Shown in pieces: positions 4,396 through 64,000 of a DNA stretch of 64,000 nucleotides. This DNA is from Bdellovibrionota bacterium (GTDB lineage Bacteria > Bdellovibrionota_C > UBA2361 > OMII01): positions 8,427 to 72,426 of the forward strand of contig JBIJBE010000003.1 in NCBI GenBank assembly GCA_044345405.1, given 5' to 3'. How positions within the stretch are numbered: the stretch's first letter is position 1; each line of letters starts with the position of its first letter. The notes under the pieces are model-generated. The model was not told the origin of the DNA, did not search any database, and saw only the letters and a program-made list of their open reading frames with translations. Both the position numbers and the translations under genes were made by a program.

Positions 4396-4519
4396 GGGAG
4401 GGCGACCGTCCCCGGTCGCCGAAATGTTTACGTGTCGTACACTACATTCGACCTATGCGAACACGGCGGTCGAGGACCCCACTTCGCTACGCTACGAGGG
4501 ACATGCTGACCGCCCTCCC
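4396..4519. repeat. Copy A of a dispersed REP/MITE-like palindromic element (GGGAGGGCGACCGTCCCCGGTCGCCGAAA ... CTTCGCTACGCTACGAGGGACATGCTGACCGCCCTCCC)
   Basis: Terminal inverted repeats GGGAGGGCGACC / GACCGCCCTCCC. The same family recurs at 17480, 33027, 43003, 49027 and 50298. This copy sits 27 bp downstream of the bioB stop. Confidence 0.8.
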
Positions 4520-4546
4520 ATGCCATGGGTCGGAGGCTGATATTCC

Positions 4547-7592: not shown

Positions 7593-8588
7593 CTACGCCT
7601 CGCCTCGCTTGCGTAGCTGAGCGAACGCTTCCGCGAAGTAGGTGATAATGATATCGGCTCCGGCGCGTTTGATGCTGGTCAATGACTCAAGCATGACCCG
7701 CCTCTCATCGAGCCATCCCATCTTCGCGGCCGCTTTCACCATGGCGTATTCACCACTCACGTTGTACGCGGCGGTTGGCATTTGGAAGGTTTCTTTCACT
7801 GCCTTGATGACATCAAGAAAGGCGAGAGCTGGTTTTACCATGACTATATCCGCTCCCTCTTGCACGTCGAGCTCAACCTCTCGGATCGCCTCACGGATGT
7901 TTCCAGGATCCATTTGATAGGTCTTTCGATCCCCATATTCAGGGGCTGACTGTACGGCGTCACGGAACGGTCCGTAGAACGAGGACGCGAATTTAGCCGC
8001 GTAGCTCATCAACGGCACCTCGGAGAAGTTGTTCTCATCGAGACCGTGACGTAAGAAGCCGATTGTGCCGTCTAACATCCCACTTGGGGCGATGATGTCC
8101 GCGCCCGCTTCCGCGTGCACAAGCGCTTGCTTTAAGAGGTTAGGGAGCGTTTCGTCGTTACACAGTTTGCCATCGTGCATGACGCCGCAGTGGCCGTGAT
8201 TGGTGTACTCACAGAAGCAGAGGTCGGTCACGACCATCATGTCCGGAACCGCTCTCTTGATGGATTTAATCGCCTTGGGAATGATCCCCTGGGGATGCCA
8301 CGCCGAGGAGCCTACCTCGTCTTTAAATTCGGGGATCGCGAAGAGAAGAACTGAGCGAATACCGAGCTCATAGAATTGAATCGCCTTTTCAGTGGCGGTG
8401 TCGACACTCAGATTGTATTGCCCTGGCATCGATGAGATCTCGCGCTGAACTTTTTCGCCCGGGACCACAAAGAGAGGGGCGATCATGTCCGAAACCTCGA
8501 GGCGGGTTTCACGGACCATCTCTCGGAGTGCTGGAGTGCTGCGAAGTCGTCTAAGGCGAGTTTGCGGATACATAGCAAGAATCTTCAA
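7593..8588 (-). CDS. hemB: Porphobilinogen synthase (delta-aminolevulinic acid dehydratase)
   Basis: Conserved ALAD motifs (FVVPG, the active-site lysine region VMVKPA, the GADII segment). 331 aa. Confidence 0.9.
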   Translation of the reverse strand: MKILAMYPQTRLRRLRSTPALREMVRETRLEVSDMIAPLFVVPGEKVQREISSMPGQYNLSVDTATEKAIQFYELGIRSVLLFAIPEFKDEVGSSAWHPQGIIPKAIKSIKRAVPDMMVVTDLCFCEYTNHGHCGVMHDGKLCNDETLPNLLKQALVHAEAGADIIAPSGMLDGTIGFLRHGLDENNFSEVPLMSYAAKFASSFYGPFRDAVQSAPEYGDRKTYQMDPGNIREAIREVELDVQEGADIVMVKPALAFLDVIKAVKETFQMPTAAYNVSGEYAMVKAAAKMGWLDERRVMLESLTSIKRAGADIIITYFAEAFAQLRKRGEA

Positions 8589-33026: not shown

Positions 33027-33084
33027 CCGGCGACCGTGATCCCCCTTCGCCAAGGCTTCGGGGGACAAGCTGGTCGCCCTCCGG
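33027..33084. repeat. Copy C of the palindromic repeat family (CCGGCGACCGTGATCCCCCTTCGCCAAGGCTTCGGGGGACAAGCTGGTCGCCCTCCGG)
   Basis: It shares the GGCGACC/GGTCGCCCTCC ends and the GGGACAAGCTG core with copies D, E and F. It lies about 75 bp downstream of the LON-N gene stop. Confidence 0.7.
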
Positions 33085-33157
33085 TTGTGCGACCCGTGAC
33101 ATCGGAGGGCGCGCATTCCTGCGCGCCACCTGCATGTTTGTTCGGATGTTTATATTG

Positions 33158-42987: not shown

Positions 42988-43002
42988 TCGAGCCTGGTAC
43001 CA

Positions 43003-43126
43003 GGGAGGGCGACCGGCCTCCCCCTTCGCCAAAGCTTCGGGGACAGGTCGGTCGCCGAAAGCTTGCGATTAGCGGGAAATCTTTGCCTGGCGTATCCATA
43101 CGGCGACCGGGGACGGTCGCCCTCCC
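43003..43126. repeat. Copy D of the GGGAGGGCGACC palindromic repeat family. It is composite, with two ends in inverted orientation around GCCGAAAGC.
   Basis: CAGGGAGGGCGACCGGCCTCCC ... CGGCGACCGGGGACGGTCGCCCTCCCAGG. It begins 16 bp after the dapE stop codon. Confidence 0.8.
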
Positions 43127-43276
43127 AGGTGCGCACCTCAAAAGTCATTAACGGGACGCGCATTACCTCCTCGCCCCGACACTCTCCCCATATCCACGCT
43201 CCTCCAAAAAGTGCTATAAATTCCGCCAGTAACCCGTTGATACGCCGTGCCCTCAGTGGCGCGGTTGGAGGTATGT

Positions 43277-49013: not shown

Positions 49014-49026
49014 GGGGCCGGTGCCC

Positions 49027-49085
49027 GGGAGGGCGACCAGGATCCCACTTCGCTACGCTACGAGGGACAAGCTGGTCGCCCTCCC
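49027..49085. repeat. Copy E of the palindromic repeat family (short form: GGGAGGGCGACCAGGATCCCACTTCGCTACGCTACGAGGGACAAGCTGGTCGCCCTCCC)
   Basis: Perfect 13-bp terminal inverted repeats. It lies 14 bp after the OMF stop codon, in terminator position. Confidence 0.85.
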
Positions 49086-49148
49086 CTGGTGCTACCCTGC
49101 GCCCCCTCACACCACCGTCCCGGTGAGCTGACCTATACTCCTCTCCCT

Positions 49149-50297: not shown

Positions 50298-50449
50298 GGG
50301 GAGGGCGACCGTCCCCGGTCGCCGAAAAAGCCACGTGTGTTTCAAGGTATTCGCCATTCGCAACACGGCTTGTGCCCCATAGCTTTAGCGACGGGGTACG
50401 GTCAGGATCCCCCTCCGCTAAAGCTACGGGGGACAAGCTGACCGCCCTC
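50298..50449. repeat. Copy F of the GGGAGGGCGACC palindromic repeat family (long form, with an internal hairpin CCCCATAGCTTTAGCG/CGCTAAAGCTACGGGG)
   Basis: Its left end is identical to copy A (GGGAGGGCGACCGTCCCCGGTCGCCGAAA). It lies immediately downstream of the DAHP synthase stop. Confidence 0.8.
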
Positions 50450-50472
50450 GCAGATCCCGGGACGCGCAGCGG

Positions 50473-59261: not shown

Positions 59262-60338
59262 CTATGACACGAGCCGTTGTGGATAGCTGATTCGTTTAAG
59301 AGTTTCGAATTGTTGAATAATTTTGACCGAGTCGATGGCGGGGCCAAAGGTGTCGTAGAGAGACTGGCAGAAGGTGTCCAACTCTCGACTGTTCTCCGTC
59401 TCAAAGCGTAGTTCGAAGTCCCAGTTTCCGGTACACGAGATCGCCGCCACAACGTTCGGACAGAGGGCTATCATTTTATAGAGAAGCTTTTTTTGATCCG
59501 GACTCATTCCTCGGTCCACGAGGAGAAGACGGTAGGTTTGCACGCCGATCTTGTCGGTTCGAAGTACGTATATTTTGCCCCGAATAATTCGCTGTTCGGT
59601 GAGTTTGTCTATTCGGTATTGAATGGAGCTCGCGCTCATAGCCATGGCGCGAGCTATCCCTTGGAGAGACGTGTCAGGATTGCCGCTCAAAAATTCGAGG
59701 ATTCTCCCATCTGTATCGTCTAAGGCTCGTACGGGAGTTTTCGATGTAAGGTGAATACTCTCTCTCTTGTGAGAGGATGGCGAGAGATAGAGAGGATTAA
59801 AAACACTCCAATCGATCGCAATTCGAACCGTTTTCTCGAAATGGGCGCCGGCCTCCGCCGGTCTCAGGAGTGTAAATAACTCATCGACTTCATGTATCTG
59901 TTGAGCCCACAACCACAGCATATACCGGTAGCCGCCACCCATTCGGTTTAATCCCATGACGCGGGAATGGGTCATAACCGTTTTTTCTAAACGCTTTTGG
60001 CCAGCGGAGCTCTCGGCTCCTCGATTAAAAAAAGTGGTAACGTCGAGGTATCCGAGAGCGAAGTGATCGATATGATAGATGGGAGTGATTATGCCACGAC
60101 GAAGAAGCGAGTCTCTCGCGTGTCGGGTGGCGTGCTGACTCAGACCGGATCTTCGAGCCAGCTCCTTCACAGAGTCGTCCGCGTTCAATACATTCGCGGC
60201 AAGGAAAATCCTTTCTTTGTCCGATAATCTGCTATGACTCTGCATCCGGTAGGATATAGCAGGAAGTGAGGGTGTGAGGCGAGTGGAATCATACTCCGCA
60301 CGGTCTGATGGGAATGTTCCGAAATCATGTAATGTCAC
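59262..60338 (-). CDS. Tandem Lrp/AsnC-like (HTH_AsnC plus RAM-like) two-module protein. It may be a siroheme-decarboxylase (AhbAB/NirDL)-like enzyme or a regulator.
   Basis: Two successive wHTH+RAM-like modules (DKERIFLAANVLNADDSVKELARRSGLS..., DGRILEFLSGNPDTSLQGIARAMAMS...). Confidence 0.45.
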   Translation of the reverse strand: MTLHDFGTFPSDRAEYDSTRLTPSLPAISYRMQSHSRLSDKERIFLAANVLNADDSVKELARRSGLSQHATRHARDSLLRRGIITPIYHIDHFALGYLDVTTFFNRGAESSAGQKRLEKTVMTHSRVMGLNRMGGGYRYMLWLWAQQIHEVDELFTLLRPAEAGAHFEKTVRIAIDWSVFNPLYLSPSSHKRESIHLTSKTPVRALDDTDGRILEFLSGNPDTSLQGIARAMAMSASSIQYRIDKLTEQRIIRGKIYVLRTDKIGVQTYRLLLVDRGMSPDQKKLLYKMIALCPNVVAAISCTGNWDFELRFETENSRELDTFCQSLYDTFGPAIDSVKIIQQFETLKRISYPQRLVS

Positions 60339-60586
60339 CTGTGCGTTACGTGTAGAGCGAGGGGGCGCGCGGTGTCTGAGATAAAGCGGGCGTCCACGGC
60401 GGTCTGGTATCGCGGTATCTCCTTCGAGTGGAAGACGGGCGATAACGGGCGATGCTCTAACTAAATTCTAGTCATTCCTGGCCAACTAAGTGTTTGCGCG
60501 TCTCGTGGGGTGTCGTATTTTCTTGCCCACGCTGTCCTTCGGACGCTGATGAATCGATGTTCACAGGTAGAATACAAGAGGAGTCC

Positions 60587-61789
60587 ATGGATAGAGTAGA
60601 TCGTACGCAGTCGTGTCGGTACGGTGAGATTGTTGATCTGGAGCGTGCTACCCTACCGGGAGCGTTTCGCCCGGCGATAAAGGGGCTCTCCGTTTCTGTC
60701 GAGCAGTTGCCCCACTATGTTGAGGAATCGCTAGCAATTGTAGGCTCGCGCTCAAGGAAAGACATCGAGATATTCCGAAATCTTCTGACAATCAAAGTGC
60801 CTGTGGAGTCCCTTCTTCAAGAGGTCGCCGCTAGCTCTGATGTTTCTATTTCAGAAATACCCGCCGCGTTGTGTCGGATCTGCAACGCGTGGGTTGAGGT
60901 CGCGCCCCAGCATGATGTCGCCGCCCGAATGCCCATCTCTTACGTGGTGGGAAGGCTCGTTGACCTTTGGGTGTCTCATCGTGACGCGAATCTGTCAGAT
61001 GACGAGCGTCGCACCATTCCGTCAAATGAGGCAACACGGGAGGGCTTTGTGAAGAACGACCTTACCGCTAAAGCTCTCTTTGACGCGATAAGTCGGTTAA
61101 GCGCTCCAGCTATGCTTGCCGCTGGCTCCATCGCGCAGCGAAGAGTAGAGCGAATCGGACGGGTAACGATGATAGGTCAGGACCCGTTTAAGGTTTTCTT
61201 CGATACACTTTTTGTCTTTGATCCAGAAAAGGCGAACGTCAACAAGTCGACATCAGAACAGTTTATTCCCTATCTGTGGTCTCGTCTCGAGGCCCGTTGG
61301 TTGGGGTCCGATCGAAAGAGGTGTGAGGATAAGGCTGTTCGATCCGTCAGGGGACGTGAAGGAGAGCTTACCGACATGGCCTCGATGCTGGAGGACAAAG
61401 GGGCACGCGACTTTACGGCATCCGTAGATCGTCGGGATGAGTTCGAGTGGACACGCGCCGCGCTTGAAAACGCGTTGGTAGATGGCGCTTTACGCCGCGG
61501 TGATTATGAAGCTATCCTTCAGTATTTTGGTCTAGGCGGTGCCCAAACAGGGCATGGAGCGCTGAAAAGTTCCGCTCTCTCCATAAAGACGAAGGCTCAA
61601 CGGGGAATCGATCATTTTAAGCGCTACCTCAAGGCCCAAGAGGCCGAGCGTGATGATATCGAATGCCTGTCTTCACAACCGGGTGATTGTGAGACCTTTG
61701 CTCGTTATCCAAAACTCTCTGGAGCTGGTTCTCATCCTAGGCTCATGAGGCGAGCGGAGCAGCGGGCGCAACGTCCAACTGTTTGGTAG
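60587..61789 (+). CDS. Hypothetical protein (about 400 aa from the ATG at 60587 with an AGAGGAG RBS; the six-frame ORF is open from 60494). A 5'-truncated paralogue begins at 63613.
   Basis: A long ORF. Nucleotides ~60961-61350 are ~85-90% identical to 63613-64000. Confidence 0.45.
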   Translation: MDRVDRTQSCRYGEIVDLERATLPGAFRPAIKGLSVSVEQLPHYVEESLAIVGSRSRKDIEIFRNLLTIKVPVESLLQEVAASSDVSISEIPAALCRICNAWVEVAPQHDVAARMPISYVVGRLVDLWVSHRDANLSDDERRTIPSNEATREGFVKNDLTAKALFDAISRLSAPAMLAAGSIAQRRVERIGRVTMIGQDPFKVFFDTLFVFDPEKANVNKSTSEQFIPYLWSRLEARWLGSDRKRCEDKAVRSVRGREGELTDMASMLEDKGARDFTASVDRRDEFEWTRAALENALVDGALRRGDYEAILQYFGLGGAQTGHGALKSSALSIKTKAQRGIDHFKRYLKAQEAERDDIECLSSQPGDCETFARYPKLSGAGSHPRLMRRAEQRAQRPTVW

Positions 61790-61972
61790 TAGTGAGAGTT
61801 AAGCCGGGCAACCCAAGCACCTGGATGTCACGTGAAGTGGAGCAACGGCTTTACCGTACAACACAAAGCCTCACCGTTGTCTTTGAGTTTTCAGTGTCCT
61901 TTGTGGTCCCGTCACTTGTATTCATGGGCCATCTAAGTCCACATGGACACCAGAAGCGGCTTATGCGGACTA

Positions 61973-62230
61973 TCAGTCCCGCTCAAAAAGCATCTGCTGT
62001 CGCTTCGGCTTGATCTGCACCGGCATTCCCGCGGGATAATTTCCAGAGAAGCAAGCGTCGCAATATTTACCATGGGTTGACTCAACGGCGCGGTAGAGCC
62101 CCTCGGTTGAGAGGTAGGCGAGGGAGTCAACACCTATGTACTCCGCGATCTCCTCAATGGTGTGCTTGGAGGCGATAAGCTCGTGCTTATCGGGGGTATC
62201 GATACCGTAGTAGCACGGGTTCTTCGTCAC
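61973..62230 (-). pseudogene. purF: 3' remnant of amidophosphoribosyltransferase (purF), C-terminal ~85 aa only. It is truncated where the REP array begins.
   Basis: PurF C-terminal signature GIDTPDKHELIASKHTIEEIAEYIGVDSLAYLS...CDACFSGNYP (the 4Fe-4S Cys ligands). No upstream PurF sequence exists, since the fragment runs straight into the tandem repeats at 62223. Confidence 0.6.
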
Positions 62231-62387
62231 TGGTGCCAGGCTCTTTTTAAGCGTTTCGTCACTGGTTCGTCACTGGTGCCAGGCTCTTTCTGGTTCGTCA
62301 CTGGTGCCAGGCTCTTTTTAAGCTGCTCGTCACTGGTGCCAGGCTCTTTTTAAGCGTTTTCGTCACTGGTGCCAGGCTCTTTTTAAG
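62223..62387. repeat. Tandem array of five full copies plus one partial copy of a 29-32-bp REP-like unit (TCGTCACTGGTGCCAGGCTCTTTTTAAGC)
   Basis: Directly visible direct repeats. An inverted single copy (GAGCCTGGCACCAGTGAC) lies at 63591-63608 on the far side of the transposase gene. Confidence 0.9.
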
Positions 62388-62420
62388 CAACTCTCTGCCC
62401 CGTTCCCCGATTACACCTGC

Positions 62421-63395
62421 ATGCGTAATCCAAGATTTCTCGTTCCCGGAAAGATACACTTCATCACCTTTCGAACTGAGGAGGGGCTTCCGTTTGTCCC
62501 TCTGCGATTCATGAATATTCTTATTCGGTCCGCCCTCGCCAGAGCCCAAAAGCTCTACCCTGTTAAAATCATCTGCTTTGTTGTTCAGGCTAACCACGTA
62601 CACCTTCTCGTACGGGTGACAAACCCTCAGGATGTTTCGAGCTTTATCGGGTACTTCAAAGCGGAGAGTGCTCACTACCTCAACCGTCTCCTCAACCGAC
62701 GACAACGAACTGTTTGGGCTCCACGTTTCGACAGTCCTGCCGTGTTGGACATAGACAAAGCTCTTGAACTATTCGCCTACTGCTCCCTAAATCCCGTAAA
62801 AGACGGACTAGTTGCGTCAATGCGGGAGTATCCTGGGCTTAGCTCATACCCGTATCTCCTGAGAGGAGAACAGGTAATCCCTGCGAAATCGATCCCAAGA
62901 GATAAAGTTCGCCCATTAGCGGATCCAACTAATCCCCAACGAGAGAACAAGAGCCTGTCTGAATATTTCAGCTCCGATGATTTCCAAGACCTTTCTATTA
63001 CACTCGCCCCGGAAGAGCTTCGACTAGCATTTCCATCAACCAAGGCCTCTACCGCGGAGGAGTTTCATAAAACGCTTCTACAAACCATCTCCAAGTACGA
63101 GCAGATTTATCTCGCTGACCAGGCTGGAGCAGCGCCACTCGGAGTCCCCAAGCTTCTCGCGATCTCCCTCCTTGCTCAACGGAATCCTCCCATCAAAGGT
63201 AGGAAAATGATCTGTCTCTCTTGTTGCAACGACCTTCGCCAGGCGTTCATATCATCATTCAGGCACATAAAAGCGCTGTGCCGGGAAGCCTTCATGAAGT
63301 GGAGCGCCGGACTCATGGTGCCTTATCCGCCCGGGATGTTCGCTCCCCATCCCCCTAGGATCGCGAATTTCATTCCTCAGACTAACTTCTCATAA
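62421..63395 (+). CDS. REP-associated tyrosine transposase (RAYT; IS200/IS605-like Y1 HUH transposase), 324 aa
   Basis: HUH motif NHVHLLV, the catalytic-Tyr region and the RAYT-specific Y-x-x-x-NPVKDGLV motif (FAYCSLNPVKDGLV). The gene is flanked by REP copies in inverted orientation. Confidence 0.7.
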   Translation: MRNPRFLVPGKIHFITFRTEEGLPFVPLRFMNILIRSALARAQKLYPVKIICFVVQANHVHLLVRVTNPQDVSSFIGYFKAESAHYLNRLLNRRQRTVWAPRFDSPAVLDIDKALELFAYCSLNPVKDGLVASMREYPGLSSYPYLLRGEQVIPAKSIPRDKVRPLADPTNPQRENKSLSEYFSSDDFQDLSITLAPEELRLAFPSTKASTAEEFHKTLLQTISKYEQIYLADQAGAAPLGVPKLLAISLLAQRNPPIKGRKMICLSCCNDLRQAFISSFRHIKALCREAFMKWSAGLMVPYPPGMFAPHPPRIANFIPQTNFS

Positions 63396-63612
63396 GACTC
63401 TGACTTCACAGTTAACAGCGCACGCGACCCCGTTGTTCCGCTAACTCATAGTGAACAAGAGATCACGTGGCTCCTTCTGGCCAAGAGCCAAAGTTATAGA
63501 CAAAGAATGCGTGGACCGCAGCTCTAGAGCTGCAGCCTTATGGGGGCAAAAAACAAGCGCCTGACCGCATGGTAAAGCAAGGAAAGCAAGGAGCCTGGCA
63601 CCAGTGACAACG

Positions 63613-64000
63613 ACCTTTGGGTGTCTCATCGTGACGCTAATCTGTCAGACGACGAGCGTCGCACCATTCCGTCAAATGAGGCAACACGGGAGGGCTTTGT
63701 GAAGAACGACCTTACCGCTAAAGCTCTCTTTGACGCGATAAGCCGGTTAAGCGCTCCAGCTATGCTTGCCGCTGGCGCTCTCGCGCAGCGAAAAGTTGAA
63801 CGGCTCGGTCGGGTCGCGATGATGGATCAGGACCCGTTCAAGGTTTTCTTCGATACCCTATTTGTCTTTGATCCTGAAAAAGCGAACATAAACAAATCGA
63901 CCTCGGAGCAGTTCATCCCCTACCTATGGGCTCGACTGGAGGCTCGTTGGTTAGAGTCAGATAAGCGCCGCTGTGAGGCTACGGCTGTTCGCACCGCGAA
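63613..64000 (+). CDS. 5'-truncated paralogue of the 60587-61789 gene (partial, runs off the window). It may be a pseudogene or a gene fragment.
   Basis: The in-frame translation DLWVSHRDANLSDDERRTIPSNEATREGFVKNDLTAKALFDAISRLSAPAMLAAG... is ~85% identical to residues ~125 onward of the first copy. Homology starts immediately after the inverted REP. Confidence 0.5.

Follow-up and report, generated by a model that had tools for sequence, protein, structure and literature searches.

RAYTs are the best-studied domesticated bacterial transposase, and the recognition and spread of their repeats are still debated. The E. coli TnpAREP (PDB 4ER8) belongs to subclass 2.2 (Quentin et al. 2018, PMC6006769) and to Bertels group 2. 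Proteins of the REP-flanked subclasses 2.2, 2.4, 2.5, 2.7, and 2.8 have 150-213 aa (PMC6006769), and the residue following the conserved Trp is Glu or Gln throughout the class-2 subclasses of their table. In subclass 2.1, which includes the TIRYTs of TIRtrons and is reported as prevalent in delta-proteobacteria, the C-terminal domains are of HTH type and REP-like flanks are lacking; subclass 2.3 proteins have a median length of 325 aa and an NHYH motif, with 55 aa inserted between beta3 and alphaC, and likewise lack REP flanks; and class 3 TnpAY1 has been described as intermediate between IS and REPtron (PMC6006769). Our literature search found no substantive link between Bdellovibrio and RAYTs.

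The locus described here lies near the right end of a window of 64,000 nucleotides, which is the whole stretch of DNA that was analyzed (contig JBIJBE010000003.1 of the Bdellovibrionota assembly GCA_044345405.1, positions 8,427 to 72,426). It is probably a REPtron of the RAYT (TnpAREP) type, with an HUH-Y1 gene standing between cognate short repeats. A sequence-only reading of the window had proposed a RAYT with its own repeats, associated with local gene erosion.

Results

The RAYT gene and its catalytic core

The unit comprises the following features:

62421-63395, + strand: intact RAYT/TnpAREP-like gene of 324 aa (ORF and translation)
62421-62870, + strand: HUH-Y1 core and SS tail, residues 1 to ~150, part of the RAYT gene
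62841-63392, + strand: family-specific C-terminal domain, residues ~141-324, part of the RAYT gene
62223-62390, + strand: upstream repeat array (repeat finders), five full units and one truncated unit (62255-62266)
62226-43, 62269-86, 62297-314, 62329-46, and 62362-79, + strand: cores of the upstream repeats
63396-63587, + strand: non-coding spacer from the stop codon to the inverted repeat
63588-63611, - strand: single inverted repeat copy, bounding the unit on the right (core 63591-63608; + strand sequence GAGCCTGGCACCAGTGAC)

The 324-aa ORF with HUH and Y...NP motifs that had been proposed is present at 62421-63395 on the + strand; it contains QANHVHLLV, with NHVH at residues 58-61, and YCSLNPVKDGLV, and the ORF list holds no second gene inside the unit. 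Alignment of 26 homologues revealed that H59, H61, W99, Y120, N124, and P125 are invariant, as are C265 and P303-G305-F307-P309 near the C terminus. The best solved-structure match of the family profile is E. coli TnpAREP (4ER8), and this match assigns the TnpAREP fold to the protein, its core aligning with 4ER8 residues 5-134 without large insertions. In the same profile, H59 and H61 align with the HmH of 4ER8, and Y120 aligns with Y115 of the 4ER8 chain, which is reportedly the catalytic residue (Messing et al. 2012); the catalytic tyrosine of the sequence-only reading was thereby confirmed.

Pfam recognizes Y1_Tnp in the protein, and the NCBIfam model NF047646 (REP_Tyr_transpos) matches residues 3-138 with 80.7 bits, a marginal score that exceeds the cut-off of 80 by 0.7 bits; all 26 homologues match the same model at E <= 1e-3. 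The score against the IS200 equivalog NF033573 was 28.3 bits, far under the cut-off of 55. The tyrosine motif has the form Y-x3-NP (YCSLNP), the Y-x3-Q form of IS200/IS605 being absent, and the tail motif reads YPGLSSY. Together, the profile match to 4ER8, the position of the tyrosine on Y115, and these motifs show that residues 1 to ~150 form a TnpAREP-like core that is complete down to its YPG-SS tail motif. The identification of the protein as a RAYT is thus upheld by its HUH motif, catalytic tyrosine, and TnpAREP fold, and by the flanking repeats of its own.

In the public record, an antisense ORF of 135 aa that overlaps the repeats (window 62298-62705, - strand; L065, 11712-12809) is called as a gene, although it is spurious. 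As a consequence, the public call of the RAYT is shortened to only 217 aa and lacks the HUH motif, and an exact protein look-up with the 324-aa sequence found no record because of that truncation.

A conserved C-terminal domain and a family of long RAYTs

The remark that the protein is about twice the usual RAYT length, with a C-terminal half of no known family, was borne out, since no Pfam family matches residues 141-324, including Bac_DnaA_C, HTH_23, and HTH_28. The C-terminal domain is nevertheless conserved, spans ~185 aa, and occurs in 589 clusters (50% identity), fused to this RAYT core in every match listed. The invariant PPGMFAP tail lies in a low-confidence, probably flexible segment. 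Among the 71 homologues found, nearly all are ~324 aa long, with 30-100% identity over the full length; in the 26 that were aligned, the catalytic residues remain invariant down to 30% identity. All loci in species-representative genomes (31/31) belong to Bdellovibrionota or to MAGs labelled 'delta proteobacterium' or 'Bdellovibrionales', and several genomes carry two to four diverged copies; the long (~325 aa) RAYT subfamily has been found so far only in Bdellovibrionota, a distribution from which the window, too, would be assigned to a Bdellovibrionota genome.

The window RAYT shares Y-x3-NP and the SS tail motif with E. coli TnpAREP but has 324 rather than 165 aa, the difference being due to the extra conserved C-terminal domain, and Trp-Ala in place of Trp-Gln. 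Other members of the long family also have Ala or other residues after the conserved Trp, unlike all tabulated class-2 subclasses. As in subclass 2.1, the protein has NHVH, Y-x2-LNP, and SS motifs (Table 1, PMC6006769) and is long, with a C-terminal extension, and its gene stands between inverted repeats (Di Nocera et al. 2013, PMC3733652; PMC6006769); however, its C-terminal domain contains none of the TIRYT domains Bac_DnaA_C, HTH_23, or HTH_28, and it is accompanied by arrays of short GTAG-type units, whereas the TIRtron has long terminal inverted repeats with GGGGWSAS. Its length is similar to that of subclass 2.3, but it has NHVH, no large core insertion, and repeats. The Y-x4-Q, the protein size of ~178 aa, and the CnGA foot of class 3 TnpAY1 are all absent from the window element. 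Compared to IS200/IS605 (subclass 1.1), the element has no same-strand subterminal hairpins and no tnpB-like second gene, and paralogues are 75-93% identical. Considering these comparisons and the negative literature search, we rate the element as a known kind, a REPtron, here with a long RAYT of an undescribed subfamily, a 15-mer repeat, and IS-like copy behavior.

Repeats at the locus

The 18-mer GTCACTGGTGCCAGGCTC occurs in five direct copies (starts 62226, 62269, 62297, 62329, and 62362) and one inverted copy (63591-63608), so the five to six tandem repeats on the left and the inverted one on the right all lie where they had been reported. Shuffled sequences gave an expectation of 0.06 matches, and 0/100 shuffles reached 7. 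The repeat unit has ~32 nt (TTCGTCACTGGTGCCAGGCTCTTTTTAAGC; Tandem Repeats Finder and a repeat finder). The last upstream copy lies 59 nt before the RAYT ATG, and the inverted copy sits ~200 nt past the stop codon. In the spacer between stop codon and inverted copy, the first ~65 nt (63396-63460) are ~83% conserved with relatives of 81-85% protein identity (BLASTN, window 62366-63460 against L061-L064), and neither an Rfam match nor a terminator-like site was detected there; the Rfam search over 61700-64000 matched nothing. The array is base-identical in five independent metagenome assemblies (L065-L069) and is therefore not an assembly artefact.

In the window lineage the repeat reads G(T)AGCCTGGCACCAG, and the repeat unit of the clade is CTGGTGCCAGGCT(A)C. 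In the window, where the copies read CTC, the head is GAG, GTAG being absent, and the unit does not fold alone (MFE 0 to -1 kcal/mol, no better than shuffles), so it is not a GTAG-headed imperfect palindrome. Compared to the E. coli REPs, which are ~35-nt palindromes, the window repeat is a 15-mer without its own hairpin. Accordingly, the description of the arrangement as 'textbook RAYT-REP' is too strong: it holds for the inverted bracketing of the gene but not for the GAG head, the lack of a fold of its own, and the near-absence of the repeat in the other ~80 kb of this genome that were examined. Two other interpretations of the unit were rejected: a CGTC-tagged REP (the unit starts T-CGTC-A), since CGTC is not conserved in relatives and the repeat departs from the stem/loop rules of CGTC families (PMC3733652), and an intrinsic terminator in each unit, since the array contains no scored terminator-like site.

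Repeats across the family and the genome

An exact inverted 10-mer was common to both flanks in 20 of the 30 homologous loci with enough flanking sequence, compared to 9.7% of shuffled controls. Direct copies on the upstream side of a typical family locus number one to nine and are accompanied downstream by one or two inverted ones; the upstream copy nearest the gene is 51-134 nt away from the ATG, and the nearest downstream copy follows the stop codon by 143-260 nt. Read on the gene strand, the family units have the consensus CTG-[GT][AT][GC]-(GC-rich 5-6)-CTAC; on the opposite strand it is the 15-mer GTAG-N8-CAG, with the GTAG end towards the gene on both sides. Most relatives have repeats with a GTAG head, and the units of a few are small true palindromes (z -1.7 to -2.8). 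Within one genome the repeat variant tracks the paralogue, being GGTGCGGGGCTAC at L024 and L025 and GGAGCGGGGCTAC at L028, which carries a 77%-identical paralogue.

Repeats are dispersed in relatives. The RAYT of L062 is the same protein as P0002 and shares 85% identity with the window RAYT; in this relative, seven extra copies lie within 3.6 kb at a distance from the gene, among them two inverted doublets of ~90 nt that end in GTAG, and the calculated fold of a doublet has -20.5 kcal/mol (z -4.3). In L003, units both full and truncated form a tandem cluster between convergent genes, 3.3 kb away from the RAYT, and L018 and L024 have copies 4-9 kb from the gene. In the ~81 kb examined of the genome under study (the window, L065, and L079) the repeats are sparse, the only extra copy being degenerate:

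42991-43003, + strand: sole repeat-like copy outside the unit, AGCCTGGTACCAG, with 1 mismatch, 3 nt after a stop codon

This single degenerate copy suggests that repeat activity in this genome, and with it the activity of the RAYT, may be low or extinct. For the refuting condition of the sequence-only reading, a lack of the repeat anywhere else in the genome, the result is intermediate: one degenerate copy in ~81 kb here, and wider dispersal in relatives.

An exact 18-mer scan of metagenomes returned 28 single matches, in unrelated contexts consistent with chance except for L045. There, positions 7850-8150 (minus strand) retain only about the first 42 codons of a RAYT gene, with 93% identity to window 62361-62546 and one upstream repeat; this remnant stops at a repeat of another type, CACTGGTACAGGGCAAC, a further copy of which is present upstream. 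In L001 (2091-3350), an IS110-family transposase gene (Pfam PF01548, PF02371) ends at the upstream repeat, which is reduced to the half-unit TGCCAGGCTC, beside a RAYT of 81% identity; this element looks like a repeat-targeting IS. Downstream of the RAYT in L063 (2005-2330) there is a tandem duplication of ~160 nt, each copy ending in the inverted repeat GGTGCCTGGCACCAGGGACAAG, and short CACCAGGGCTAG tandem units follow the inverted repeat in L062 and L064.

The window also contains a second, unrelated dispersed palindromic family with the ends GGGAGGGCGACC...GGTCGCCCTCCC, at six or more sites that each appear to lie between ORFs:

4396-4522, 17480-17503, 33029-33086, 43003-43130, 49026-49090, and 50299-50454: palindromes of the GGGAGGGCGACC family

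The copy at 43003 directly abuts the sole RAYT-repeat-like singlet outside the unit, and some outer flanks of these palindromes resemble the RAYT repeat (…GGTGC…). The palindromes may or may not be linked to the RAYT: just one of them adjoins a convincing repeat, and the other termini are weakly similar. At 12-447, the window has two direct repeats of 175 nt (94% identical) and several long inverted repeats of ACGTGAACGT-like units.

A flanking duplication with an intact purF

The flanks of the unit comprise three further features:

60962-62222, + strand: left copy of a ~1.26-kb direct duplication, made up of gene X (codon 157 onward), the spacer between the genes, and the 3' end of purF
61973-62222, - strand: duplicated purF 3' fragment, last ~83 codons, 94.9% identical to the intact purF 3' end
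63612-64000, + strand: right copy of the duplication, a 5'-truncated gene X paralogue, continuing past the window into an intact purF

Both the purF fragment and the 5'-truncated paralogue reported at the edges of the unit are present. The minus-strand ORF 61973-62230 corresponds to positions 372-432 (the last 61) of the 432-position purF model TIGR01134, and the paralogue starts 3 nt after the inverted repeat copy, with 88.9% DNA identity between 63612-64000 and 60962-61341. Gene X is a 431-aa ORF (60494-61789), of which a 400-aa form is recorded on 11 contigs. L065 shares 10 kb with the window at 100% identity and continues for another 7.8 kb; in it, the truncated paralogue (273 aa) is followed by a minus-strand purF of 464 aa and then by purL. 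This purF is intact (TIGR01134, 506.6 bits against a cut-off of 350, profile positions 6-432 of 432), and window 60962-61653 matches the region past the RAYT unit at 79.7%. The layout is A-B-[unit]-B'-C, with B of ~1.26 kb, and both gene X (A+B) and purF (B'+C) are intact. The inner ends of the duplication are formed by the truncated paralogue and the purF piece; purF was therefore not destroyed, and the proposal that the unit had truncated it is contradicted by the complete gene just past the paralogue. The 'rearrangement or deletion breakpoint' seen in the window is a rearrangement junction, that of the duplication, and no gene was lost to a deletion.

The fragment 61973-62228 differs from the intact 3' end (94.9%) in 9 synonymous and 4 non-synonymous codons, and this 5% divergence of a dead piece indicates that the duplication is not recent. 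Both junctions are at the outermost repeats; at the left one, purF reads GGGTTCGTTGTC where the array reads GGTTCGTCAC, with a microhomology of 5-7 nt, and a microhomology-mediated or Campbell-type event would fit the duplication. None of 26 other family loci has a comparable flank duplication, so it was discarded as a family signature and is regarded as a local accident. The 'empty site', with gene X adjoining purF, was sought in relatives, where gene X homologues occur in other contexts; the ancestral arrangement is therefore inferred rather than observed.

Gene X (400/431 aa) matches no Pfam or NCBIfam family and has 12 homologues, all in variable contexts. It adjoins an AsnC-like regulator of 358 aa, in a region (59262-61789) where G+C goes down to 0.52, and an AsnC-like gene of 29% identity lies just upstream of the RAYT in L062. 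The gene X region (59262-61789 and 63612-64000) may be a variable island.

Discussion

In the REPtron reading, the gene for an HUH-Y1 single-strand-DNA nuclease/ligase is bracketed by five and a half direct repeats and one inverted repeat, with their heads facing the gene. The layout conserved across homologous loci, the repeat variants that track paralogues, the dispersed copies in close relatives, and the signs of unit copying support this reading. The catalytic mechanism and the mobilization of repeats would follow those of E. coli TnpAREP, by analogy with which the RAYT would bind the single-stranded repeat, use Tyr120 and a metal coordinated by His59/His61 to cleave beside it, and reseal the ends, so that repeats and inverted doublets would spread round the genome. 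In the long RAYT family, whole repeat-gene-repeat units have also been copied (L024 and L025; the 99.7%-identical gene of L061 and L062), and the C-terminal domain may help to recognize the short repeat or target the enzyme. Given the GAG head in place of GTAG and the lack of a hairpin of its own, the recognition mode of 4ER8 (hairpin plus GTAG) may not apply. As in the E. coli REPtron, the gene is bracketed by repeats in inverted orientation, with a GTAG head in most family members; it differs in the tandem direct arrays upstream, the several diverged copies per genome in relatives, the evidence of unit copying, and the restriction of the long family to Bdellovibrionota. Similarly to the RAYT/REPIN systems of Pseudomonas (Bertels & Rainey; groups 2, 3), the doublets of close relatives fold into long hairpins (L062, z -4.3) and each gene variant has its own repeat variant, whereas repeat density is very low here (~1 per 80 kb) and the long-family genes are neither single-copy nor syntenic among relatives. 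The single extra copy in ~81 kb, the GAG head and missing hairpin of the unit, the 0.7-bit margin of NF047646, and Trp-Ala count against the REPtron reading.

The locus could instead be an autonomous IS-like element, in which the repeats are the ends, the whole 1.39-kb unit transposes, and no separate dispersed repeats exist here, a possibility that we consider rather doubtful. In line with such an element, the 92.6% identity between L024 and L025, two paralogues of one genome, starts and stops exactly at the upstream and downstream repeats, with no relationship beyond them, and at least three copies plus fragments occur in one genome (L014/L015). A 99.7%-identical gene is found in two upstream contexts (L061/L063 and L062/L064), with homology beginning at the repeat; the truncated remnant in L045, the lack of synteny around the RAYT among relatives, and the near-absence of dispersed copies from ~81 kb of this genome point in the same direction. 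The long RAYT family thus looks more mobile than described by Quentin et al. (2018). However, relatives carry gene-less dispersed repeats and doublets, and paralogues within a genome are 75-93% identical, a divergence of 7-25% that indicates no recent burst. In contrast to IS200/IS605, with its left- and right-end hairpins on the same strand, the unit has inverted, multi-copy ends, and the protein has Y-x3-NP instead of Y-x3-Q, with 28 bits against a cut-off of 55 for the IS200 model. Moreover, IS-like transposition overlaps with the REPtron explanation and does not exclude it.

The repeats might also be protein-binding or insulating sites (iteron- or terminator-like) of a host protein that has been fully domesticated and has ceased to move DNA. 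The tandem direct array that stops 59 nt before the ATG, the T-run after each unit, pointing at the gene from both sides, and the stability of the array across samples would agree with this, as would the near-palindromic core CTGGTGCCAG, which suits a dimeric duplex binder, and a conserved extra domain that could bind duplex DNA. We consider it highly improbable, since neither promoter-like nor terminator-like sites were scored within the array, the repeat units do not fold, the catalytic residues are invariant down to 30% identity, and gene-less dispersed copies and doublets occur in relatives. Local gene erosion, by which the unit would have truncated purF and the paralogue of the 60494 gene through insertion or deletion, is almost certainly wrong: only fragments of purF and the paralogue adjoin the unit inside the window, but L065 refutes it with an intact purF (506.6 bits, its 3' end 94.9% identical to the fragment) and gene X intact on the left, a complete copy of each remaining, and the A-B-[unit]-B'-C pattern is that of a duplication in which no gene was lost.

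The analysis also clears two annotation traps: the apparent purF pseudogene is a duplication remnant beside an intact purF, and the RAYT is publicly called with only 217 aa. It is unlikely that the Bdellovibrionota family represents a distinct undescribed HUH-Y1 subclass whose unit is still mobile, an intermediate between an IS200-type element and a domesticated RAYT. If this were true, the C-terminal domain would supply a function absent from known RAYTs, for instance targeting to the replication fork via its invariant PPGMFAP tail or recognizing a short 15-mer that forms no hairpin, and the 1.26-kb flank duplication would be the footprint of a replication-coupled, template-switch insertion. 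Overall, the long RAYT family differs from described RAYTs in its large conserved domain without a family match, a repeat too short for a TnpAREP-type hairpin, and signs of unit copying, which together make it a useful test case for the evolution of repeat recognition and domestication.
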